DNA of 64,000 nt from Ignavibacteriales bacterium. Its GTDB lineage: Bacteria > Bacteroidota > Ignavibacteria > UBA10030. Numbering within the stretch: position 1 is the stretch's first letter; each line of letters starts with the position of its first letter. The notes beneath the pieces were generated by a model, which ran no database searches, was not told where the DNA came from, and was given only the letters and a program-made list of their open reading frames with translations. The stretch is taken from positions 640 to 64,639 of the forward strand of contig JACPLA010000021.1 of NCBI GenBank assembly GCA_016186715.1, written 5' to 3'. The position numbers and the translations under genes were made by a program. Below are positions 3,034 through 15,601 of this stretch, one piece after another.

Positions 3034-3444
3034 CTACTTTGTGAGAGCCATCTTCATTACCTTTGTGAATTGCTTTCCGCTCTGACCCGTCGCAACGATG
3101 CGATAGAAGTACACACCGCTTCCCACCTTGCCTCCAGCGGCGTCTGTCGCATTCCATGTCAGTCTCTGGTAGCCGGCAGAATACTCCCGCTCGACAAGTC
3201 TGACAATTTCACGACCCAAAACGTCGAGGACCGTGACACTCACGAATGACGGCTCGGGGAGCGCAAACGAAATCTGCGTTTCAGGATTGAAGGGATTGGG
3301 AAAATTCTGACTTACTTGAACCTCCTTCGGAATTACAATAACTATTTCCTCATCAGCATGTCTTTCCACGGGTTCACCCTCTACAAACGCGACGTTGCTG
3401 TACGCAGAGACCAAACATCGTGGCCGAATCTCTACGCTGGCCAT
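3034..3444 (-). pseudogene. remnant of a T9SS-secreted protein: C-terminal sorting domain only
   Basis: 136-aa ORF consisting almost entirely of a Por/T9SS C-terminal domain (NFPNPFNPETQISFALPEPSFVSVTVLDVLGREI...YFYRIVATG). No functional passenger domain remains. Confidence 0.5.
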
Positions 3445-3897: not shown

Positions 3898-4773
3898 CTA
3901 GGAAAGGCTCCTGGATTGAGCATCAGATGCACACTCCTCGACGACTTTGTGTATGTGAGCTTGAACGGTTTGTGATTTAGACGCTTGCGATTCTGTCATC
4001 TCATGGATTGGCTGACCAGATCCACCGCGACGCACCGCGATGATTTCACTCATAACACTGAGTGCTATTTCTTCGGGTGTTAAGGCACCGAGATCAAGTC
4101 CTGCCGGCGTCCTGACACACGAAAGCCCCGAAGCAGGTACCCCGGCATCCGCGACGTAATCGAGTACGAGTTTTGCACGTTTCTTGCTTGCAATGAGGGC
4201 GACGTATGCAGCGTTGCCTTCGAGTGCGAGCTTGAGTGAAAGATGATCCTGCTTATGCTGCGTTGCAATGACGACGTAGGATTGACTGTCGATCTTTGTC
4301 TCACCGAACGATCCCTGAAATAGTTTGTCTGCTGTGGGGAAAGCTTCCGGCATTGCCGCAGGGCTATTCACCGTGACAGTGAAGTTCATTATTTTGCCGA
4401 TTGCCGCAATCGTCTCAGCAATTTTTCCGTGACCAATAATCACAAGTTTAGGTTTCGGCAAAATCGGTTCAATATAGACTTGCATAGTCCCTCCACATGG
4501 CATGCCGACGCCGAGAACCTCGTCGGTCATATCGATGGATATCATTCGCGTATTACCATCTTTGATGCTTTGTGCAGCCTCATAGCGCACAGTGCTTTCC
4601 GCACATCCCCCGCCAACCCAGCCATAGAGAAGCCGCTCGTCGGTGTCGATGATTGCTTTTGATCCCGGCTTCGCAGAGGATGAACCCTGGATATGCACAA
4701 CCGTCGCCACTGCGAATGGTTTTTCCGTCTTGCTCAGCTCAAAGAGCTTTTCAAAAAATTCCTTTGACATCAC
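3898..4773 (-). CDS. coxF: XdhC/CoxF-family molybdoenzyme maturation chaperone
   Basis: XdhC_CoxI N-terminal domain (FAVATVVHIQGSSSAKPGSKAII...WVGGGCAE) plus a Rossmann C-terminal domain. It lies inside the cox cluster. Confidence 0.8.
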   Translation of the reverse strand: MMSKEFFEKLFELSKTEKPFAVATVVHIQGSSSAKPGSKAIIDTDERLLYGWVGGGCAESTVRYEAAQSIKDGNTRMISIDMTDEVLGVGMPCGGTMQVYIEPILPKPKLVIIGHGKIAETIAAIGKIMNFTVTVNSPAAMPEAFPTADKLFQGSFGETKIDSQSYVVIATQHKQDHLSLKLALEGNAAYVALIASKKRAKLVLDYVADAGVPASGLSCVRTPAGLDLGALTPEEIALSVMSEIIAVRRGGSGQPIHEMTESQASKSQTVQAHIHKVVEECASDAQSRSLS

Positions 4774-4781
4774 TCATCCTC

Positions 4782-5078
4782 CTATCGAAGGAAAACGTCG
4801 ATTCCAAAATAGGGTAAGATCACAAATGCGAGAGTCACAGCGCAGCTTCCCAAGAAAAATACTTTATTAAACACAGTACCCCTGGCTCGAAAAGTCAAAT
4901 AGAATGAAATACCGAATGAGATCACCCCAGCGGCAAGTAGGATGTGACGATAAGGACTGAGGATCCACACAAGACTTGTTGAACCGAGACCGAACAGGGA
5001 ATAGAAAAAGGGAAGTGCACAACAAGGTCGTGAAAGAAACCCAAAGATGATTCCCGTGATAGTCGTCAGATTCTTCAA
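4782..5078 (-). CDS. small 2-TM membrane protein with vicinal Cys pair, MerF/MerT-like
   Basis: 98 aa. TM1 carries a CCALPF motif, as in MerT/MerF CCxxP. It is followed by LSPYRH and a second TM. Confidence 0.45.
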   Translation of the reverse strand: MKNLTTITGIIFGFLSRPCCALPFFYSLFGLGSTSLVWILSPYRHILLAAGVISFGISFYLTFRARGTVFNKVFFLGSCAVTLAFVILPYFGIDVFLR

Positions 5079-5094
5079 TTGCGGACTCCTTCCT

Positions 5095-5648
5095 TCATCC
5101 TAGTTCCCTCGTTTCCTGTTCATGTTGCCGGCGTATATTCACGATCTCGGCAAGGATACTGAGTGCAATTTCTTCAGGGGTGGATGCATAAATCTCCAAA
5201 CCAGCCGGCGATCTGACGCGTTTCAATTCTTCGTCGGACACACCGCCTGAACGTAGATGCTGAATCATTTCTGCACCACGTTTCTTACTCCCCAGTACCC
5301 CAATGTACCTTGCCTTTGTTTCAAGTGCTTGCGCCAGAGCATCTTCATCGTATTTGCCGCGACTCGCGATGACGATATACGACTCAAGTGAGACATCTGC
5401 TTTCCTCAAATCCAACTCCTGGATGGTGTCATCCACCTCCATGTCATCTTCTGAAAGAAACGGATCAATAACGGTGACGTGGAATTTGAGCACTTCCCTA
5501 GCTTTGCAAGCGAGGTCGCAACCGTATCACCTCCAATGACCACGAGCCTGGCGACATGTTCAGACGTCAAGACTGGATTCCTTGATGGAGGAAAATCTTT
5601 TGAAGTCATCCGCAGTGTCGATATCAACGAGAATGCTGGCGTCAGCAA
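5095..5648 (-). pseudogene. XdhC-like Rossmann-domain-only gene, interrupted by a frameshift near 5490
   Basis: Two overlapping frames. One (5406-5648) encodes LVVIGGDTVATSLAKLGK. The other (5095-5493) continues with HVTVIDP...GVLGSKKR...SPAGLEI. It overlaps the 3' end of mocA. Confidence 0.45.
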
Positions 5649-6234
5649 GGTTCACTGTGTGGATTTTTTTCGGATGGAGGCCGAAGAGAGATCGACAGCC
5701 AATGTCACCCGAGATTTGCATCATCTCGCCAAACAGCGAGCGATCAACTAGTACCGGATTCCCTCGAAATCCCTTATAGACGGGAAGAATGATCGGAGCT
5801 TTCTCTCGACGATATTCATCGGTCAATTGATTGATAATTGAAGGATTGAGAAAAGGCTGATCAGCCAACACGATCAATGCGGCCTCTGAGTCGGGTGCGA
5901 GAGACTGGAGACCGGCCTTGATCGACGTGCTCATTCCTTGCGCAAATACATCGTTGACGACGACTCTTGTTCGTTGGGCTCCACTATTCAGAGTAATCGC
6001 TTTCAGAATTTTTTCAGACTGATAACCGAGGACAAGGATTATCTCGCTCACACTCGAATCAGCCACCGTACGTATTGTGTGTTCCAGTAACGTGCAATTC
6101 CCTACTTTCATCAATTGCTTGAGGCTTCCCATACGCTTCGACATTCCAGCTGCGAGAATTATCGCCGAGACGAATGGTCGATTGACCGTCTCAATTCTTT
6201 GTGCAGTATGTTCTCGAGTTTCGAGCATGTTCAT
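5560..6234 (-). CDS. mocA: MocA/MobA-like molybdenum cofactor nucleotidyltransferase
   Basis: N-terminal ILAAGMSKRMG nucleotide-binding loop and the MobA-like NTP_transferase pattern. Confidence 0.75.
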   Translation of the reverse strand: MNMLETREHTAQRIETVNRPFVSAIILAAGMSKRMGSLKQLMKVGNCTLLEHTIRTVADSSVSEIILVLGYQSEKILKAITLNSGAQRTRVVVNDVFAQGMSTSIKAGLQSLAPDSEAALIVLADQPFLNPSIINQLTDEYRREKAPIILPVYKGFRGNPVLVDRSLFGEMMQISGDIGCRSLFGLHPKKIHTVNLADASILVDIDTADDFKRFSSIKESSLDV

Positions 6235-7250
6235 CCACCAAGTTGAAACATTTCTGCCCTTGTTGCATGAGCACCTGCTTCAAGAAGTTGAGCGCGCTCT
6301 TCAGAATATCGATCGGTTCTGTTGCTCCAAATCGATGCGATCAATTCCTTGATGCTCTCGTCGCTCGCTCCGGTTCTCAGATGAGTCTTGAGATCGTGTC
6401 CCTGACTTGCAAACAAGCACGTATAGAATTTTCCTTCTGCCGATAGTCTGATCCTTGCGCAATCTCCACAAAAAGGTTTTGTCACTGATGCGATGACTCC
6501 TATTTCGCCCTTCCCGTCCGTGTATCGATACCGCAGCGCGACCTCGCTCGGATAACTTCGCTCCAAAGGTTCGAGCGGCAATTCTTTGTCGATACGTCGG
6601 ATGATCTCATCAGCAGAAACGACATCATCCATCCTCCAACCGTTCAGAGTTCCTACGTCCATGTACTCAATAAATCGTAGAACATGTCCCCGTCGTTTGA
6701 AAAATCTCGCGAGGTCAACCAACGTATGGCCATTGACCCCTTTTTGAACAACAACGTTGATTTTGAGAGGCGAGAAACCGACCCTCGCAGCCGTTTCAAT
6801 TCCTTGGAGGACGCGCTCAGTCGTGAATCCTTGTCCGTTCATCTTGCCGAAGACTTCATCATCGAGTGAATGCAGACTCACGGTTATTCTATGGAGTCCT
6901 GCATCCTTGAGCGCCTGCGCTTTTTCAGTTAACAGGTATCCATTCGTTGTGAGAGCGAGGTCTGTCATTCCCTTGATCCCGGCCAGTTGGTAGACCAACA
7001 CCTCTATGTCATTTCTAAGCAAAGGCTCGCCACCCGTGAGACGGACCTTGGAGACCCCAAGATCAACAAAGATCTTTGCAACGCGAACGATCTCCTCGAA
7101 TGTCAGGATTTCGGTTTTCGGAAGAAACTCGTATCGCTCGCCAAACGTTTCAGCAGGCATGCAAAAAGGACACCGAAAATTACATCGGTCCGTGACCGAG
7201 ACCCGAAGGTCGTTGAGCGGTCTGCCGAATTTATCTTTGAGTTCAGACAT
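6231..7250 (-). CDS. moaA: GTP 3',8-cyclase MoaA (radical SAM)
   Basis: CNFRCPFC radical-SAM motif, MoaA-type length (339 aa) and a C-terminal Cys cluster. Confidence 0.9.
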   Translation of the reverse strand: MSELKDKFGRPLNDLRVSVTDRCNFRCPFCMPAETFGERYEFLPKTEILTFEEIVRVAKIFVDLGVSKVRLTGGEPLLRNDIEVLVYQLAGIKGMTDLALTTNGYLLTEKAQALKDAGLHRITVSLHSLDDEVFGKMNGQGFTTERVLQGIETAARVGFSPLKINVVVQKGVNGHTLVDLARFFKRRGHVLRFIEYMDVGTLNGWRMDDVVSADEIIRRIDKELPLEPLERSYPSEVALRYRYTDGKGEIGVIASVTKPFCGDCARIRLSAEGKFYTCLFASQGHDLKTHLRTGASDESIKELIASIWSNRTDRYSEERAQLLEAGAHATRAEMFQLGG

Positions 7251-7257
7251 GTTTTTT

Positions 7258-8256
7258 TTAACGATGTTTCATCTTGATGTATTGTTCGGGGTCCTTTTCA
7301 AAGGTAGACTTGCAATGGGCGGAACAGAAATAAAAAGTCCTTCCATTCAGCTTTGAAATATGCTTCGCTGTAGCAACGTTCACCATCATCCTACAAATAG
7401 GGTCTTCTTGCTCGGCCGGTTCGTTCGCCCGGTGTTTTGCAGTCTCTGGGCTTGCGTGAGCTGCAGCTGATCTGGTAACTTGAATTATCTCTGCAAGAAT
7501 GCTTACCGCAATCTCTCCGGGAGCCGCCGCTTTGATGTCCAAACCCGCCGGGACCTTCACATGCTTCAACTGGGAGGAGGAGAAACCTCGTCCCTGCAAA
7601 TACTCTGAAACCGCCTCCCATTTCTTCTTGCTGGCAACAAACGCAACGTACGCAGCGTCAAGGCTCAGCGCCTGCTCGAGCGCTCCCTCGTCATCTTCTC
7701 CTTGCGTTGCAACGACAATGGCAGAACGGGTAGATGATCTCTCCTCAAACGCCCTCATAAGCCCTACACCATGCCCCGACTGTTGGAAAATATCCACGTC
7801 TGCAAAATCTTCTCGACTTTCTTCCGGGGCCACAACTGCAACGCGATACGAGAGGGTCTTCGCGAGCGTTGCGAGCGTTTGGGCAACGGCTGACCGTCCG
7901 AAGATGAGCAGTTGTACTTTCGAAAGAATCGGTTCAATGAAAATATCCAAGGTTCCTCCACTGTGACACATCATCGTGTAACCGGTGATGCCATCGGAAG
8001 GCTCGGCGCCAACTGTCGGGCTGACACGAACAAACCGCGGGTTGCCGTCCTCGAGAGCTTTCATCGCTTCTTTGATCACGATCGGTTGAGCGCATCCCCC
8101 GCCAACCCAGCCGGATAACTTCCCATCACGGGAGATGAGAGCTCTGTCGCCCGGCTTTGCTGAGGTCGGACGTTCACACCGCACGACGGTGGCAACCGCG
8201 AATGGTTCATTCTTTTCCCGGAGTCGACTAACGAGTTTTAAGAAATCGTCAAACAT
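7258..8256 (-). CDS. XdhC-family chaperone fused to a C-terminal YHS/TRASH metal-binding domain
   Basis: XdhC_CoxI and Rossmann domains, followed by ...ICRMMVNVATAKHISKLNGRTFYFCSAHCKSTFEKDP (YHS-type). Confidence 0.8.
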   Translation of the reverse strand: MFDDFLKLVSRLREKNEPFAVATVVRCERPTSAKPGDRALISRDGKLSGWVGGGCAQPIVIKEAMKALEDGNPRFVRVSPTVGAEPSDGITGYTMMCHSGGTLDIFIEPILSKVQLLIFGRSAVAQTLATLAKTLSYRVAVVAPEESREDFADVDIFQQSGHGVGLMRAFEERSSTRSAIVVATQGEDDEGALEQALSLDAAYVAFVASKKKWEAVSEYLQGRGFSSSQLKHVKVPAGLDIKAAAPGEIAVSILAEIIQVTRSAAAHASPETAKHRANEPAEQEDPICRMMVNVATAKHISKLNGRTFYFCSAHCKSTFEKDPEQYIKMKHR

Positions 8257-8300: not shown

Positions 8301-9470
8301 TTAAGATAAATGATGCTCGAGTTGGAGAAGACTCTCCAAACTGTGCGCGGGCGCGAAAACGTCCGCGAAGGGGAGTGCAGCACTCATCCCGCGTGTGATT
8401 GGCTGGTACTCAGCAAGTCCAAGAAGAGGATTGAGCCAGATGAGCTTTCGGGCCCGACGCTTGATTGTTTGGAGTTGTTCTGTCAGCGCTTCAGGTTCAC
8501 CGGTGTCCCAGCCATCACTCATGATAATGACCAAAGAATTGCGCGAACGCAGTTTCCGAGCATGCAGCGTATTGAATTCCGCCAAACATTTACCGATGCG
8601 CGTGCCCCCGGACCAGCTCTCGACGTTCTGCGCAACCATCTGTAAAGCGTTGGAGAGTTGATGCGTTCGAAGTGCGCCTGAAATATCGGTTAGCCGCGTG
8701 CTGAAAACGAACGAATCGACGCGCTCAAAATACTGCTGCAGTGCATAGACGAATCGCAGGAGGAACAAGCTGTAGAGGTCCATCGATCCGCTGACATCTA
8801 GAAGCACGACCAGATTGATCTTTTGACGTTTTCTTTCCTTATAGTGCAGCGTCATCGGTTCTCCGCCGCGACTGAGGTTGGAACGAATCGTCCGCCTGAA
8901 ATCCAGACGGCCTCGTTCTCCATACTGTCGATACCTTCGCGTCAAGCGCTTGCTCATCTGTCGCCACAGCCGCAGGCAAAGTTGTTCCAGGAGAGGAAGG
9001 TCGGAAGCCGCCACCTCTGAGAAATCCATCTTTCTTAATCGCTCTTCTGCACTTGCTCCGGTGGTTGCCGTGAGATCGCCTTCCTCCTGGGACTTGCTGG
9101 CCTGCTCCAAAGCTCGGCGGTGTTCGTCTCCAATCACGGGCACTTCAATCCGAGAAGAAAGTACTTCCCTCTGCAGGTGGATTGTTTCAGTGGAGTTTCC
9201 CCAAAACTGTTCAAACAGCTGATCAAACTGTTCGTATTGTTCCCTTGAAGAGCAGAGGAGTGCGCGAAGCGAAGATTGAAATGCTTCGCGATCGGTAATC
9301 GTAACGAAGCGAGCAACTTCCAGGGCATCGATGGTTTCTTGTAAACCGACTTGAAAACTGTTTGCTCGCAAGAATCGGCAGAACTGAACGATCGTCTTGG
9401 TCACGATACCGTCGGAAAAGCCAGCACTTGCACGCACGGTCATGCTCTTTTGAGTCGGTTTCTTCATCAC
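8301..9470 (-). CDS. coxE: VWA-domain protein CoxE
   Basis: MIDAS motif LVVLLDVSGSMD. It sits immediately downstream of the MoxR ATPase within the cox cluster. Confidence 0.8.
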   Translation of the reverse strand: MMKKPTQKSMTVRASAGFSDGIVTKTIVQFCRFLRANSFQVGLQETIDALEVARFVTITDREAFQSSLRALLCSSREQYEQFDQLFEQFWGNSTETIHLQREVLSSRIEVPVIGDEHRRALEQASKSQEEGDLTATTGASAEERLRKMDFSEVAASDLPLLEQLCLRLWRQMSKRLTRRYRQYGERGRLDFRRTIRSNLSRGGEPMTLHYKERKRQKINLVVLLDVSGSMDLYSLFLLRFVYALQQYFERVDSFVFSTRLTDISGALRTHQLSNALQMVAQNVESWSGGTRIGKCLAEFNTLHARKLRSRNSLVIIMSDGWDTGEPEALTEQLQTIKRRARKLIWLNPLLGLAEYQPITRGMSAALPFADVFAPAHSLESLLQLEHHLS

Positions 9471-9500: not shown

Positions 9501-10424
9501 TTAACTTTCGACTTGCGACAGGATGCTTGGAATATTTTCAGCCTTGAGTTTCGAAATATCTTCGTTCGATTTCAGAATACATCCCAGTGTTTCTTCCACG
9601 GTCATCTCGTCCAGCTTGGTTTTCTCAAGCGAGAGAAGGGCAGAAGTCCAATCAAGAGTCTCTGCAATGCCCGGCGGCTTCGAAAGATTTTTACCCCGCA
9701 CTGCTTGAATGAACTGGACGATTTGATTCGCCAACTCTCGTCCGATCTGCGGAAGTTTCTTGTGAACGATGTGCAGCTCCTTCTCAAGGCTTGGATAATC
9801 AATCCAATGATAGAGACAGCGCCTTCTCAAGGCGTCGCTTAACTCCCTTGTTCGATTAGAGGTGAGCACAACGTAGGGTACATGGGTCGCCTTGATTGTT
9901 CCCATTTCGGGGATTGTGATCTGAAAGTCGGAAAGAAGCTCCAGCAGAAATGCTTCGAACTCTTCATCCGCCCGGTCAATTTCGTCGATCAACAACACCG
10001 GCGAAGCATTTGTCGCACTAATGGCTCTCAGGAGCGGTCGCTCCAGAAGGAATTTAGCGCTGAAAATGTGTTTCTCTTTCTCTGCGATACTTGCTTCAGC
10101 ATGTTCCTGAATCTTGATGCTCAGTAACTGCTTCTGGTAATTCCATTCATAGACCGCCGAGTTGACATCCAGTCCCTCGTAACATTGGAGGCGAATGAGT
10201 TCCGTTCCGAGAAAAGAGGCTAACACATTCGCTGTCTCCGTCTTTCCGACGCCAGCGTGTCCTTCTATGAGCAGTGGTCTTTGAAGCTTGAGGAGAAGGT
10301 AGATGGCGGTGGCAAGAGGACGGTCGGCAACGTACTTTCGCTGTTCAAAGCCGCGCATCAAATTGTCAATATCGGAGAGGTGGTTCATTGGATTAAGGAA
10401 TTCTTTAGGCATCGAATTATTCAA
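9501..10424 (-). CDS. coxD: MoxR-type AAA+ ATPase CoxD
   Basis: Walker A GHAGVGKT and the MoxR architecture, 307 aa. Confidence 0.85.
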   Translation of the reverse strand: MNNSMPKEFLNPMNHLSDIDNLMRGFEQRKYVADRPLATAIYLLLKLQRPLLIEGHAGVGKTETANVLASFLGTELIRLQCYEGLDVNSAVYEWNYQKQLLSIKIQEHAEASIAEKEKHIFSAKFLLERPLLRAISATNASPVLLIDEIDRADEEFEAFLLELLSDFQITIPEMGTIKATHVPYVVLTSNRTRELSDALRRRCLYHWIDYPSLEKELHIVHKKLPQIGRELANQIVQFIQAVRGKNLSKPPGIAETLDWTSALLSLEKTKLDEMTVEETLGCILKSNEDISKLKAENIPSILSQVES

Positions 10425-10426
10425 AC

Positions 10427-11017
10427 CTAAGATGAAGTTGACTTTCCGAGGATACGGCCGAAGAACCGACCAATCACTTTGCCTGTTACACTCAGAACCA
10501 AAGGAAGAGCATTGACAGGCTGAGGGGTAGGTGCAAATGCGACTTCGCTCCCCGTCCCATTTTCTTGCGCCAACTTTGCTTGAAAAGATCTGGTGAACTG
10601 TTCGAAGACATGATTTGACACATCATCCATCATCCGCGAGCCGAACTGTGCAAGCCTGCCCGTTACCGTGATTTCCGTCGTGCCGGTGACTTCCGTTCTT
10701 CCCTCAGTCAACGAGCGAAGTTTTCCCACCATCTTCATCGTGGCGCCGCCGGAACCGCGAGGATCTTGCCCCTTACCAAGAAGTTCAATTTCATGAATTT
10801 GATTGTCGAGTCGTTCGATTTTCACCTCTCCATTAAATTGAGAAGTAATCGGCCCTACTTTGACGGTAATGGTCCCTTTGTACGTCCTATCGTCGATCGC
10901 TTCCGTGATCTGGGCTCCGGGCAGACAGCTTGCGACTTTTTTCAAGTCGCTAAGGAATGCCCACACCTTTTCAATCGGTTGTTTGACCTGAAACTGTTTT
11001 GTGCTGGTTGCATGCAT
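10427..11017 (-). CDS. coxG: SRPBCC-family CoxG
   Basis: 196 aa with a CoxG-like sequence pattern. It lies directly after coxL. Confidence 0.75.
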   Translation of the reverse strand: MHATSTKQFQVKQPIEKVWAFLSDLKKVASCLPGAQITEAIDDRTYKGTITVKVGPITSQFNGEVKIERLDNQIHEIELLGKGQDPRGSGGATMKMVGKLRSLTEGRTEVTGTTEITVTGRLAQFGSRMMDDVSNHVFEQFTRSFQAKLAQENGTGSEVAFAPTPQPVNALPLVLSVTGKVIGRFFGRILGKSTSS

Positions 11018-11150: not shown

Positions 11151-13511
11151 TTACCGTTCCGCTGCGACGCCTTTCTCCTTCAGAATCTGCCACACCTTCC
11201 ACGGCGTCATGGGGATATCGATGTGTCGCACACCGAGATGCGCTAACGCATCGACGACCGCGTTGACAATGGCAGGTGGTGCGCCGACGGTCGCGGATTC
11301 GCCCACTCCCTTCGCACCGAGAGGATGATGAGGTGATGGCGTGCATGTCTTGTCCGTCTCCCACTTTGGAGTCTCTACGGCCGTGGGAAGAAGATAATCC
11401 ATGAAGCTCCCGCCTTGGATGTTTCCCTCTTCGTCGTAGTTGATCGCTTCGTACAATGCGGGCGCAAGTCCCATCGTCAATCCACCATGGATCTGACCTT
11501 CGACAATCATTGGATTGATGATGTTTCCGCAATCGTCCACCGCGACGAACCGGCGTACTTTCACTTCACCGGTCCCGCGGTCAATGTCTACGACACAAAT
11601 ATACGAACCAAACGGAAAGGTAAGATTCGGCGGATCATAATAGGAGACAGCCTCGAGACCCGCTTCCATTCCCTGAGGATGGTTCGTGTACGCCGCAAAC
11701 GCAATTTCCTGAATCGTTTTTGCTTTCTGAGGAGCCCCTTGCACGTAGAATTTTCCACGTTCCCAGACAAGATCTGCCTCACTGCATTCGAGGAGGTAGG
11801 CGGCAATCTTCTTCGCTTTGTCGCGGATTTTTCGAGACGCCATTGCTCCTGCCGCTCCTGCCGTGGGAGTCGAACGAGAGGCATATGTTCCCAGCCCGTA
11901 TGGCGCGGTGTCGGTATCCCCTTCTTCCACTTGAATGTCGTCAACGGGGATGCCGAGTTCTTCTGCAACGATCTGGGCATACGTTGTCTCGTGGCCCTGA
12001 CCTTGCGACTTCGTGCCAAATCGCGCAACCGCTTTGCCGGTGGGATGAATACGAATCTCACAGCTGTCGAACATCTTGATGCCAAGAATGTCAAACGTGT
12101 GGGAAGGTCCTGCGCCGACAATTTCCGTGAAGCTGCTGATTCCGATTCCCATCAGCTCTCCTTTCTTCCGCTTCTCGGCCTGTTCCTTTCGCAGCGCATC
12201 GTAACCGATGATCACTTTCGCCTTCTGGAGCGCCGCCTCGTAGTTGCCGCTGTCATATTCCCAGCCAAGCGCAGATTTGTAAGGGAATTTATTTGCGGGA
12301 ATAAAGTTCTTCATCCGCAATTCCGCCGGATCCATCTTCAAGTCGTGGGCAAGGACATCGACCATGCGCTCAATCGTGTGGACTGCTTCTGTGACTCGGA
12401 AGGAACAGCGATACGCGATTCCTCCGGGGGGTTTATTCGTATAGACACCATCTACTTCCGCAAAAGCTGTCTTAAAGTCGTAGGAGCCGGTTGCGATGGA
12501 GAACAGACCGGCAGGAAACTTTGATGGGTTCGCTGCGGCGTCGGCGTAGCCGTGATCAGCTATTGTCTTGATTCGAAGTGCCTGCATGGTTCCATCTTTC
12601 TTTGCAGCAATCTCGGCCGTGATGTGATAGTCACGAGCGAAGGAATCCGCCTGAATATTCTCCATGCGATCTTCGATCCACTTCACCGGCTTTCCGATCA
12701 GAACGGAGGCCGCCACCGCAATGACATACCCCGGATACACCGGCACCTTTCCACCGAATCCTCCGCCGATATCCGGAGAAATGATCTGAATCTTTTGTTC
12801 ACTGAGGCCAACGTGTCCCGCGACCAGAGCAAACACCGTCCTAATCGCGTGTGGCGCCTGGGTGGTCATCCAAACGGTAAGTTTCCCGCTGATCTTGTCA
12901 AAGCTCGCCACGCAGCCACATGTCTCGATTGAACAAACATGAATTCTGGGGAGGTACATGTCTTGCTTGACTGTCACATCTGCTTCCTTAAAAGCTGTCT
13001 CTGTTGCGGCCTTGTTACCAACCTCCCAATGGAAGATAAGATTGTCTTTTTTGTCTTTCTTGTCGGTTCGGAGGATGGGCGCACCGAGCTCCAGCGCTTT
13101 TTTCGGGTCCACAACCACGGGGAGCGGCTCATATTCTACTTCCACCGCCGCCGCACCGTCTGCAGCAATGTACCGGTCGGTGGCAATCACTCCCGCTACT
13201 TCCTGAGATTGGTACATCACCTTCTCAACCGGAAGAACCATCTGTGTGTCAGACATCAGCGTCGGCATCCAGTGCAGGTTGTATTGCTTCAGCATCTCAC
13301 CGGTTACGACGGCGAGGACACCGGGGATGGCCGTTGCTTTGGAGGTATCGATCTTTTTGATTTTCGCGTGTGCGTACGGGCTGCGGACGATGTCGAGGTA
13401 GAGCATCCCCGGCAATTTGACGTCGTCAACATAATTGCCCTTTCCCTGAATAAAGCGCGGATCTTCCTTGCGCTTCACGCTATGACCCATGCCTTGGATT
13501 TCAGTAGCCAT
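11151..13511 (-). CDS. coxL: form-I aerobic CO dehydrogenase large (molybdopterin) subunit CoxL
   Basis: 786 aa of the xanthine-dehydrogenase family. It contains the form-I active-site loop GGIAYRCSFR (the AYXCSFR signature). Confidence 0.9.
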   Translation of the reverse strand: MATEIQGMGHSVKRKEDPRFIQGKGNYVDDVKLPGMLYLDIVRSPYAHAKIKKIDTSKATAIPGVLAVVTGEMLKQYNLHWMPTLMSDTQMVLPVEKVMYQSQEVAGVIATDRYIAADGAAAVEVEYEPLPVVVDPKKALELGAPILRTDKKDKKDNLIFHWEVGNKAATETAFKEADVTVKQDMYLPRIHVCSIETCGCVASFDKISGKLTVWMTTQAPHAIRTVFALVAGHVGLSEQKIQIISPDIGGGFGGKVPVYPGYVIAVAASVLIGKPVKWIEDRMENIQADSFARDYHITAEIAAKKDGTMQALRIKTIADHGYADAAANPSKFPAGLFSIATGSYDFKTAFAEVDGVYTNKPPGGIAYRCSFRVTEAVHTIERMVDVLAHDLKMDPAELRMKNFIPANKFPYKSALGWEYDSGNYEAALQKAKVIIGYDALRKEQAEKRKKGELMGIGISSFTEIVGAGPSHTFDILGIKMFDSCEIRIHPTGKAVARFGTKSQGQGHETTYAQIVAEELGIPVDDIQVEEGDTDTAPYGLGTYASRSTPTAGAAGAMASRKIRDKAKKIAAYLLECSEADLVWERGKFYVQGAPQKAKTIQEIAFAAYTNHPQGMEAGLEAVSYYDPPNLTFPFGSYICVVDIDRGTGEVKVRRFVAVDDCGNIINPMIVEGQIHGGLTMGLAPALYEAINYDEEGNIQGGSFMDYLLPTAVETPKWETDKTCTPSPHHPLGAKGVGESATVGAPPAIVNAVVDALAHLGVRHIDIPMTPWKVWQILKEKGVAAER

Positions 13512-13543: not shown

Positions 13544-14023
13544 TCATTTTTTTTCCGTCGCAATTTTTTCCGCCGCGTACCGAATCGCTTTGACGATATT
13601 GACATAGCCTGTGCAGCGGCAAAGATTTCCCGATATCCCCCATCGAATTTCTTCTTCCGAGGGATGAGAGTTGTTCTTCAGTAACGTGTAAGCACTCATC
13701 ATCATACCGGGCGTGCAAAAACCGCACTGGAGACCATGCTTTTCCCAGAAACCTTCTTGAATGGGATGGAGCGTTCCATTCTTTGCGAGACCCTCCACCG
13801 TAAGGACATCCCCTCCATCGGCTTGAACAGCGAGGACCGTGCAGGATTTTACCGCGCGTCCGTTAAGGACAATCGTGCAGGCACCGCAGTTGGTGGTATC
13901 ACATCCAATGTGAGTCCCAGTAAGGTTCAACACTTCTCTGACAAAGTGCACGAGTAACATCCGAGGTTGAACGTCGGCTTCATTCTTCACGCCGTTGACG
14001 GTCATTTGAATTCGGTGGTTCAT
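13544..14023 (-). CDS. coxS: CO dehydrogenase small [2Fe-2S] subunit CoxS
   Basis: CGACTV and GFCTPG iron-sulfur motifs, 159 aa. Confidence 0.9.
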
Positions 14024-14026
14024 GAT

Positions 14027-15601
14027 TTATTTCCCTCCTTTCGCACGTTCTACAGCTTGGTTGAGCGCGCGAACAGTCAGAGTCTTGACCATAGCTCGTT
14101 TGTACTCTGCAGGACCGCGAAGATCAGATGAGGGCTGCGAGGCTTTTGCTGCAAGGTCGCCCGCCTTCCCCATCAGATCGTCATCCGGTTTTTTCCCTCG
14201 CAATAATTCCTCTGCTTCCTTCGCCTGAATAACCGTAGGTCCAACGTTCGTCAATCCAATGCCGACCTTTTCTATCTTGTCACTCGTATCGAGCGTCAAT
14301 TGAACCGCTACGGCAGCAACGGCGAAATCCCCAACTTTTCGCTCAAGTTTAAAGTACGCGCCTCCGGTCCGTCCACCCGGAGTCCGCACACGAATTTCAG
14401 TAAGTATCTCATCCTGCTTGAGCGCTGTCTCAAACAATCCGGTAAAGAATTGGTTGATGGGAATTGTGCGCTCACCCTTGGCGCCCGTTACTACTACCTC
14501 TGCACCGAGAGCCACCATTGTTGCAGGATGATCATTGGCGGGATCCGCGTGAGCCAAATTTCCGCCAACGGTTGCCATGTTTCTCACAAGAGGATCGGCA
14601 ATGACTTTTGCAGTATCCGCGATGATCGGATACTTCGAACGAATCAGATCGGAAGCATCGAGGTCTGACTCGCGTGTCAGAGCGCCGATCCGGAGAAATC
14701 CTCCCGATTCTTTGATATAGCTCAGTCCATCGAGACGGTTGATGTCAATGAGCATTGGTGGCGTAGCCAACCTTAGTTTCATCATGGGGATGAGACTGTG
14801 GCCGCCGGCCAGAATCTTCGCGTTCTCTCCATGCTTTTGCAGCAGCGAGATCGCCTCGGAGAGCGTTGTGGGCCGGAAGTATTCAAATGAGGGCGGGATC
14901 ATTGTTGCCTCCATTCTTCCGTGAGGAGTTAAGTGAGAAAGGTAATACCTTCGGTAGTAAGGAACCTGCGGAATGTTTCCATCGATGTTGATAACGACTT
15001 TTACCCCCTCGAGCGACATCTCAAGAACCTTATCGATCAGTGTGTTCACCTGATCAGTGCCCATCCATTGTAACCTTCTGCGAACCAATAGCGCCGCAAG
15101 TCCATGCCAGGCCGACCAAATCGCAAGAGTTGTTGCTTCAGCATCAGATTGTCGATTTCCATTACGCGCCAGGCACGCCTGAACATCGTTCCGAAGGAGA
15201 TCTAACATTTGGTATGTTGTCTGTTTGACTTCTTCCTGGGAGCGATGTTGGGTGGGCTTCCGCATGATGAACATCAGGTCGTAATACTCCGGATACTTCA
15301 GAGCAAAATCAAAATAGATTCTGCCGTGCTTTCGAAGCCGCTCCAATGGTTCTGCTATCAACTCACGCTGTTGTTGAAACGCAACAAGTTTTTCGAAGGC
15401 ATCTTCGTATAAGTGGTAGAAGATGTCGTTCTTATCCTTAAAGTAGAGGTAAATCGAAGAGGGACTATATTCGATGTGGTGGGAGATTTTTCGGATGGTA
15501 ACGTTCTCGAATCCTTCTTCGAGAAATAAGCGCATCGCGGCATCAAGCACTTGCCTTTTGAATGCAGACTTTTCTCGCTGTTTTCGTTCGTCCAGGCCCA
15601 A
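14027..15601 (-). CDS. coxM: single ORF encoding a TetR-family HTH domain (aa 1-200) joined in frame to the FAD-binding medium subunit CoxM (from about aa 234)
   Basis: The N-terminus has a TetR HTH (VTIRKISHHIEYSPSSIYLYFKDKNDIF). CoxM begins at MIPPSFEYFRPTTLSEA...LAGGHSLIPMMKLRLA. There is no stop codon between the two parts. Confidence 0.8.
   Translation of the reverse strand: MGLDERKQREKSAFKRQVLDAAMRLFLEEGFENVTIRKISHHIEYSPSSIYLYFKDKNDIFYHLYEDAFEKLVAFQQQRELIAEPLERLRKHGRIYFDFALKYPEYYDLMFIMRKPTQHRSQEEVKQTTYQMLDLLRNDVQACLARNGNRQSDAEATTLAIWSAWHGLAALLVRRRLQWMGTDQVNTLIDKVLEMSLEGVKVVINIDGNIPQVPYYRRYYLSHLTPHGRMEATMIPPSFEYFRPTTLSEAISLLQKHGENAKILAGGHSLIPMMKLRLATPPMLIDINRLDGLSYIKESGGFLRIGALTRESDLDASDLIRSKYPIIADTAKVIADPLVRNMATVGGNLAHADPANDHPATMVALGAEVVVTGAKGERTIPINQFFTGLFETALKQDEILTEIRVRTPGGRTGGAYFKLERKVGDFAVAAVAVQLTLDTSDKIEKVGIGLTNVGPTVIQAKEAEELLRGKKPDDDLMGKAGDLAAKASQPSSDLRGPAEYKRAMVKTLTVRALNQAVERAKGGK

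Follow-up and report, generated by a model that had tools for sequence, protein, structure and literature searches.

On a stretch of 64,000 nucleotides from an Ignavibacteriales bacterium (contig JACPLA010000021.1 of assembly GCA_016186715.1; the whole stretch is hereafter called the window), a form-I cox operon for aerobic carbon monoxide dehydrogenase (CODH) codes for a CoxF protein in which the XdhC-family core is followed by a C-terminal YHS/TRASH domain, an architecture that is the commonest one among the cox loci surveyed and that is replaced in sister clades by an HMA domain or a Cys-rich tail. On balance it appears likely that CoxF-YHS is the Cu(I) factor of this system, with a stripped-down MerT homologue of 98 amino acids residing in the maturation half of the operon. 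An earlier account made from the letters of the window (the sequence-only reading) had joined the two proteins into a possible dedicated copper-delivery module for the Cu-S-Mo centre of the enzyme. The CoxF half of this proposal stands, as the protein is a CoxF orthologue, possesses the Asp and three Cys of the YHS signature and tracks form-I CoxL, but the pairing with the membrane protein is seen at a single locus. The operon extends on the minus strand of the window from 15601 to 3898 according to open reading frame (ORF) translations and profile scans, and its features (Table 1) are present far beyond chance. The AYRCSFR loop of CoxL and a TIGR02416 score above the cut-off assign the enzyme to the form-I Mo-Cu type, as had been read from the letters.

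Domain content, gene position and the match to coxF of pHCG3 agree in identifying the XdhC-YHS protein, on the basis of its sequence, as CoxF. The Pfam families XdhC_CoxI and XdhC_C are matched with E-values of 5.9e-20 and 1e-28, the gene is located directly 3' of coxD-coxE in the order coxM-S-L-G-D-E-F, which matches pHCG3, and the best match on plasmid pHCG3 of Oligotropha (Afipia) carboxidovorans OM5 is coxF, which lies there between coxE and coxG (40.7% identity, 167 bits, versus 51 bits to CoxI). As the second full-length XdhC protein of the operon (3898-4773) is likewise CoxF-like, with 150 bits against OM5 CoxF, it is the position of the gene that settles the assignment. This second protein has the generic GMPCGG motif and no metal-binding tail, its gene also terminates the cluster in the relatives L083, L085 and L087, and the generic XdhC role, insertion of the sulfurated molybdenum cofactor (Moco), probably falls to it. 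The AlphaFold2 model of CoxF-YHS has a mean predicted local distance difference test score (pLDDT) of 90, with values of 89-96 in the YHS part and a low-confidence linker (residues 272-276) between the core and the YHS domain. Its closest solved folds are the XdhC-like structures 2WE7/2WE8 and 3ON5, the fold search having returned XdhC-type cores only, and the two-domain fold is common to Rhodobacter capsulatus XdhC, PaoD and generic XdhC proteins. Generic XdhC, however, inserts sulfurated Moco, possesses no metal-binding tail and has, to our knowledge, no link to Cu, whereas CoxF of the window carries the YHS tail. The database record that is 100% identical to CoxF-YHS bears the name 'MAG: XdhC family protein'.

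The C-terminal domain of CoxF (residues 285-327) is matched by the YHS profile PF04945 with an E-value of 1e-11, well above the cut-off of 30.3 bits (Table 1), and the motif CRMM...FYFCSAHC is found in it, which bears out the YHS/TRASH tail that the sequence-only reading had noticed. None of 119 homologues departs from D285, C288, M290, C311 and C315, while a fourth cysteine, C312, conserved in at least 90% of these sequences, is a serine in the protein of the window. CoxF thereby satisfies the YHS signature D-P-x-C ... C-x3-C, the Asp plus three Cys of which have been put forward by Linder as a copper-binding signature (PMC4626032). The YHS domains of Cu-ATPases and of the Mycobacterium phlei adenylyl cyclase belong to the same Pfam family and share the Asp and three Cys; in these proteins the domain is, as in CoxF, a C-terminal module joined by a short linker to the catalytic or chaperone core, and in the cyclase it confers a copper-specific response (PMC4626032). 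The cyclase domain is a regulatory copper sensor (PMC4626032), whereas that of CoxF sits on a maturation chaperone and is proposed as a metal donor. From the cyclase, together with the replacement of YHS by HMA or Cys-rich tails in sister clades, we infer that the YHS domain of CoxF would bind Cu. A sequence search of the Protein Data Bank with the YHS domain gave ribosomal eL24 as the sole match, which was weak and non-significant.

To date the route by which copper reaches CODH has been approached through one organism. In O. carboxidovorans, coxF and coxE mutants form a CODH with Mo and sulfane sulfur, but without Cu, and CoxF was proposed by Pelzmann et al. as copper escort (PMC4240915); the genetic evidence for CoxF in Cu incorporation comes from O. 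carboxidovorans only (PMC4240915). CoxF of strain OM5 (pHCG3 coxMSLDEFG) resembles CoxF of the window in its core of XdhC_CoxI plus XdhC_C and in being encoded right after coxD-coxE in a form-I operon, with the identity between the two covering residues 4-262; coxG is found before coxD in the window and after coxF in OM5. OM5 CoxF ends about 15 residues past XdhC_C, with no YHS, HMA or Cys-rich tail, whereas the protein of the window adds a linker of 28 residues and a YHS domain of 43 residues. Common to both is an M-x-C region (MMCHSGGT in the window, NMCPSHGT in OM5), in which Pelzmann et al. suspected Cu binding (PMC4240915). The motif MMCHSGG was considered as a CoxF-specific Cu site and was dropped, as its Cys is that of the CGG motif common to XdhC proteins in general, the second XdhC protein of the operon included.

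The distribution of CoxF tails was surveyed in 85 cox loci, of which 80 come from species-representative genomes of Acidobacteriota, Chloroflexota, Rokubacteria/Methylomirabilota, Gammaproteobacteria, SAR324, Gemmatimonadota, Actinomycetota and further phyla, and five from the closest relatives. YHS is the commonest CoxF architecture among these loci, with 65 of the 85 (three of them frameshift-split) from many phyla, a sample that is biased to YHS because the loci were picked by similarity to a YHS-bearing query. Thus the fusion that the sequence-only reading proposed to look for in other cox clusters is widespread, and XdhC_CoxI, XdhC_C and YHS are combined in all of the 120 best of 6009 homologues. 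Eleven loci, all Burkholderiales-like (L059, L062-L064, L067, L069, L071, L072, L074, L076 and L078), have CoxF with a Cys-rich tail in place of YHS, a low-complexity stretch without a Pfam family match that holds between one and three SCCG motifs and closes with ...(K)(P/S)SCCGG or CCGH. In one locus, L040 of the Rhodothermales, the tail is an HMA domain (31.3 bits versus 24.8 in Pfam); in six there is no tail, and in the remaining two the C-terminus is lost at the contig end. The YHS fusion is also found in Thermomicrobium roseum, a cultured CO oxidiser, on the megaplasmid of which coxMSL is directly followed by the gene for XdhC-YHS.

A search with the HMA form identified CoxF-HMA as the architecture of a whole clade (P0199-P0258) including the cultured Rhodothermus marinus, with the HMA motif GMSCSHC where others have YHS and with a core about 50-54% identical to YHS-type CoxF. 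The CoxF-HMA gene of L040 (10001-11017) is located inside a form-I cox cluster, and its core is 47% identical to residues 1-258 of CoxF from the window. The two loci have in common a CoxL with AYRCSFR, the coxMSGDE context and a C-terminal module for thiophilic metal at the same position, the module itself being a ferredoxin-like HMA domain in L040 and YHS in the window. Over the survey, the neighbouring CoxL keeps the Cu-ligating Cys ([AS]Y[RAS]CS[FL]R) in 67 of 68 loci with a readable loop. The tail region is otherwise variable: the linker before YHS holds SCCGS...SCCAGS in L043 and a His-rich stretch, HGDGEAHSHAPGPSHH, in L049, it is long and Gly/Ala-rich in Gemmatimonadota/Longimicrobiales (L080/L052), and CoxF of P0032 has two tandem YHS domains. 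Databases label the CoxF-YHS and CoxF-HMA proteins merely 'XdhC family protein' or 'xanthine dehydrogenase accessory factor'. A literature search, with subscription journals outside it, found no paper that joins YHS to XdhC or CODH, and no link of CoxF to TRASH, YHS or HMA among the papers inspected. The CoxF-YHS fusion is therefore common but apparently undescribed, as the sequence-only reading had supposed for the arrangement.

Related CoxF cores with a YHS, an HMA or a CC-rich tail at the same position are hard to explain otherwise than by a tail that binds a thiophilic metal, which in the CODH system would be Cu(I), and the interchange of such modules supports CoxF as the Cu(I) donor. The YHS domain, held on a flexible linker, would capture cytoplasmic Cu(I) with D285, C288, M290, C311 and C315 and would then hand it over, either to the XdhC core or to the active site of CODH, with CoxF placing Cu(I) on the Mo-SH centre of the folded apo-CODH. 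That YHS captures Cu(I) and delivers it in the CoxD/E/F-dependent step from Mo-SH to Mo-S-Cu has, in our view, a good probability.

The 98-residue membrane protein is, as judged by profile alignment, a divergent MerT without the cytoplasmic Cys loop, and not MerF. The profile of its family aligns with bona fide MerT, represented by four proteins from operons with MerP, MerA or MerR, over 94 columns and all three helices (hhalign probability 98.2%, E 5e-14). As in MerT of the Tn21/Tn501 type (PF02411), a Cys pair followed by Pro is found in the first transmembrane segment (TM1), (E)PYR stands after TM1, and three hydrophobic segments are present, at about residues 5-36, 40-62 and 73-93 by hydropathy, which are predicted as three TM segments, with the positive charges in the TM2-TM3 loop. 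In the 98-residue family, C19, C20 and P23 of the TM1 motif CCxxP are invariant and the PYR motif is retained. Unlike MerT, the protein has suffered deletion of about 14 residues of the cytoplasmic TM2-TM3 loop, where the alignment of true MerT shows the second Cys pair as invariant C75 and C81, and it stays below the Pfam threshold, MerT being its only direct Pfam match (14.2 bits, cut-off 32.9, E 0.046). The best members of the family reach 25-30 bits against Pfam MerT, and 50 of the 71 relatives from the profile search match this family, 18 also with an HMA domain in the manner of MerTP fusions. Of the description given by the sequence-only reading, the 98-residue ORF among the maturation genes, the vicinal C19-C20 in TM1 and the likeness to MerT hold, but not the two helices, which are three. 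The likeness to MerF falls as well: no MerF match was obtained at E-values up to 0.1 for the protein nor in its 71 relatives, and the three hydrophobic segments and the missing C-terminal Cys pair also contradict it.

The ORF of the membrane protein is intact, carries the motif GFLSRPCCALP and is preceded by a ribosome-binding site, AGGAAGGAG, 7 nt ahead of the TTG start, with gaps of 16 nt and 8 nt to its neighbours. A word-indexed search with the protein returned three homologues only (52-56% identity), while 75 proteins at E<=0.001, but only six at E<=1e-10, emerged when 1.84 billion representatives were searched exhaustively with a profile; between the protein and its three closest homologues 47 positions are invariant. 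The exact sequence is not on record in the public protein collection, though CoxF-YHS of the same contig is, and the gene is probably unannotated in the deposited record. It represents an unusually placed new member of a known superfamily.

The home context of this family is of the mer type. In L088, the MerT-like gene is found together with a MerTP fusion, MerA (TIGR02053, 557 bits, cut-off 454), a periplasmic HMA protein, a Phenol_MetA_deg-type barrel and a CsoR-family repressor; in L089, L090 and L095 with a barrel, two HMA proteins, a CC membrane protein, a MerR-type regulator (142 bits against TIGR02051, narrowly missing the cut-off of 151) and a GDCCVxC protein; and in L103 with MerR, a barrel-like ORF that has no Pfam match itself and clusters with the other barrels, an HMA protein and a stand-alone YHS protein of 64 amino acids. 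Throughout L088-L097, the MerT-like subfamily with GFLSRPCC is immediately followed by the outer-membrane barrel, and in several contigs the two are read as one ORF of 371-401 amino acids (for example L088 4129-5369, L091 10054-11166 and L092 825-2027). This constant neighbourhood suggests that the MerT-like protein and the barrel constitute a coupled outer-/inner-membrane pair for metal uptake, and in such operons the relatives would move a thiophilic metal, probably Hg(II), across the inner membrane. Several small Cys-rich genes accompany the heavy-metal operons of the relatives, such as a 48-amino-acid peptide (CPDDGCGC...PKCCCG) after a CsoR-like gene (L001 2445-2591), the GDCCVxC-domain protein after MerR in L089, L090 and L095 (e.g. 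L090 5857-6042) and a membrane protein of 164 amino acids with a CC motif and no family match (L090 4917-5408). The cox operon, on the other hand, holds a single MerT-like copy between its two XdhC genes with no MerP, MerA, MerR or outer-membrane partner, and tblastn found no homologue of MerA, MerP/HMA, outer-membrane barrel, MerR or CsoR in the window, which distinguishes the 98-residue gene from MerT of mer operons, the context in which its relatives from L088 to L103 are located. Pfam scans of the ORFs flanking the operon likewise gave no copper-related family, and no remnants of mobile elements were found around the gene.

In the cox operon, the 98-residue protein would be co-expressed with the cox genes and would admit Cu(I) via the Cys-Cys pair of TM1, from where the metal would go directly to a soluble acceptor, for instance the YHS domain of CoxF, a direct hand-off being proposed because the cytoplasmic Cys loop of MerT is missing. 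This part of the explanation is tentative. We nevertheless lean to Cu(I) entry on account of the intact ORF, its tight integration in the operon and the harm that MerT without MerA would cause if the metal was Hg; a lone MerT is expected to be deleterious with Hg as substrate, which argues for another substrate in the cox operon.

Several points weigh against the explanation as a whole. For the tail of CoxF, YHS/TRASH folds are able to bind Zn structurally too, and alphaproteobacterial CoxF, including the only one that has been studied genetically, functions without a tail, so that the metal module is dispensable in some lineages. For the membrane protein, no member of its family was found in any of the 85 other cox loci with two family hidden Markov models (A1 and A3) on ORFs of at least 40 amino acids, the extra matches being all driven by HMA domains. 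The contigs of the nearest CoxF relatives (63-72% identity) end short of the position of interest. In L083, L085 and L087, the CoxF of which is 57-67% identical to that of the window, the order is CoxE, CoxF-YHS, (MoaA), MocA::XdhC_C, XdhC, with nothing inserted. Neither are there cox genes beside any of 22 relatives of the 98-residue protein, from 20 metagenome loci and two contigs with close homologues. The gene is thus unique to the cox cluster of the window among those examined, and the pair that the sequence-only reading had put forward does not constitute a recurring module. The absence from related cox clusters that this reading had named as refuting applies to the pair, though not to the YHS fusion. 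The closest relatives of the protein have MerA, regulators of the MerR type and GDCCVxC proteins as operon neighbours, a context which points to Hg, not Cu, and merA may be located elsewhere in the genome, outside the window. Finally, the GC content of the gene is 0.44 versus 0.47-0.54 for its neighbours, and its low GC together with the broken MocA::XdhC_C gene points to possible decay in this portion of the cluster.

Cu(I) entry is about as likely as an alternative in which the 98-residue gene came into the cox cluster as a piece of a mer-type operon and plays no part in CODH maturation, its product transporting Hg(II) or a similar metal or the gene being in decay; this alternative, like Cu(I) entry itself, we hold as possible with more doubt than confidence. 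Besides lower GC and the broken neighbour, it accounts for the close homologues (46-56% identity) being accompanied by MerA, a MerTP fusion, HMA proteins, MerR-/CsoR-type regulators and the barrel, and for the absence of the gene from the nearest cox clusters and its dispensability in every other cox cluster examined. Against it stand the intact ORF with every family-invariant residue, the strong ribosome-binding site and gaps of 8-16 nt with no trace of a mobile element, and the lack of another mer gene within the 64 kb of the window; moreover, a MerT importer without MerA or MerP normally sensitises cells to Hg, and a purely Hg-specific copy should be counter-selected under cox control.

Rather unlikely is the full two-part relay of the sequence-only reading, a functional module in which the membrane protein, recruited from mercury-type operons, would import Cu(I) specifically for CODH and deliver it to the YHS domain of CoxF, which would then build the Cu-S-Mo centre. 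Both genes lie within one tightly packed operon, the membrane protein retains its CC pair along with the further residues that are invariant in its family, and the heavy-metal operon L103 unites a MerT homologue with a YHS protein that stands alone; moreover, CODH is one of the few copper enzymes located in the cytoplasm, and a Cu import route for it is not known, only CoxF and CoxE having been proposed (PMC4240915). The occurrence of the pair at a single locus, in none of the other 85 cox loci and beside cox genes in none of the 22 relatives, and the mercury-type context of these relatives speak against such a relay.

Least probable, and in our estimate unlikely, is a YHS domain that is not a Cu donor at all but a structural Zn ribbon, a metal sensor gating CoxF or a Cys persulfide relay for sulfuration: TRASH/YHS is treble-clef-like and related to eL24 and zf-FCS, XdhC proteins cooperate with cysteine desulfurases when Moco is sulfurated (PMC4240915) and the domain of the M. 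phlei cyclase acts as sensor (PMC4626032), but sister clades fill the same position either with HMA, the fold classically associated with chaperones for Cu(I)/Hg(II), or with CC-rich tails, neither of them a Zn ribbon or a sulfur relay, the Met after the first Cys (CGM), typical for Cu(I) ligation, is invariant, and the fusion tracks CoxL enzymes that retain the Cu-ligating Cys.

The remaining genes of the operon (Table 1) include a third XdhC-type sequence in addition to the two chaperones counted by the sequence-only reading, both of which are full-length genes. This XdhC_C-only fragment of 132 amino acids, which covers only part of the profile, is best read as the C-terminal half of a MocA::XdhC_C fusion that has come apart. 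In the relatives L083, L085, L087 and L111, MocA and XdhC_C form a single fusion protein of 343-393 amino acids; in the window (5095-6234), the fusion is split by two stop codons in the reading frame and by the loss of about 20 amino acids from the linker and the first Rossmann strand. At the other end of the operon, a TetR-family ORF continues in frame into CoxM, giving an ORF of 524 amino acids (14027-15601, minus strand). The junction (15001-15010) holds a run of five G (15004-15008) followed by TAA, and with one G less TetR would end in ...SLEG*. The read-through probably derives from an indel of 1 nt, which may be real or have been introduced by the assembly. The probable own start of CoxM is ATG 14902, with GGAG upstream, and the resulting 291 amino acids agree with CoxM of the relatives. 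Just downstream of the operon, at 3034-3444 on the minus strand, a small protein is encoded that bears a C-terminal sorting domain of the FlgD-Ig/Por secretion type, a tail of the type IX secretion system type that fits placement in the Fibrobacteres-Chlorobi-Bacteroidetes group/Ignavibacteria.

Table 1. Features of the form-I cox operon in the window, in the order of transcription. FAD, flavin adenine dinucleotide; VWA, von Willebrand factor type A; aa, amino acids.
Feature	Position	Strand	Evidence
TetR-family reading frame	15601 downwards	-	No stop before CoxM
CoxM, FAD subunit, 291 aa	14027-14902	-	FAD_binding_5 and CO_deh_flav_C matches
CoxS, [2Fe-2S] subunit	13544-14023	-	Translation and place between CoxM and CoxL, as in L085, L087 and pHCG3
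CoxL, form-I Mo-Cu CODH large subunit	11151-13511	-	AYRCSFR active-site loop; TIGR02416 1267 bits, cut-off 991
CoxG	10427-11017	-	PF06240, E 2.4e-21
CoxD, MoxR-type AAA+ ATPase	9501-10424	-	AAA_5, AAA, AAA_3; position as coxD of pHCG3
CoxE, VWA protein	8301-9470	-	PF05762 VWA_CoxE, E 2.1e-62
CoxF orthologue, XdhC family with C-terminal YHS, 332 aa	7258-8256	-	Pfam XdhC_CoxI, XdhC_C, YHS
YHS/TRASH domain of CoxF, residues 285-327	7276-7404	-	PF04945, 45.0 bits
MoaA, GTP 3',8-cyclase	6231-7250	-	TIGR02666 393 bits, cut-off 284
MocA-type molybdenum cofactor cytidylyltransferase, 224 aa	5560-6234	-	TIGR03310 183 bits; NTP_transf_3 E 2.5e-36
XdhC_C-only fragment, 132 aa	5095-5493	-	Pfam XdhC_C, profile positions 20-125 only
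MerT-superfamily membrane protein, 98 aa	4782-5078	-	hhalign to MerT; motif GFLSRPCCALP
Second full-length XdhC-family chaperone, 291 aa	3898-4773	-	Pfam XdhC_CoxI and XdhC_C

With respect to the maturation of aerobic CODH, the route of Cu to the cytoplasmic Cu-S-Mo site is unsettled, and its sole model is built on the O. carboxidovorans mutants and on sequence motifs of a CoxF that has no obvious metal-binding domain. The YHS, HMA or Cys-rich tails on most of the CoxF proteins surveyed provide independent comparative evidence for CoxF as a Cu(I) metallochaperone, and it is these swappable metal modules, and not the gene pair, that are the most useful outcome of the analysis. As a recognisable module is present on most surveyed CoxF proteins, the Cu-insertion step of CODH maturation becomes directly testable in cultured organisms, for which CoxF-YHS of Thermomicrobium roseum and CoxF-HMA of Rhodothermus marinus, with their recognisable metal sites, are better experimental subjects and could aid the heterologous production of active Mo-Cu CODH. 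A role of the 98-residue gene in copper supply is plausible. If the MerT-like gene feeds the pathway, it would be a rare bacterial importer of cytoplasmic copper and a mercury-transporter fold reused for a nutrient metal, and the full relay, if true, would constitute a complete copper route from the membrane to the active site, of a kind not described so far.

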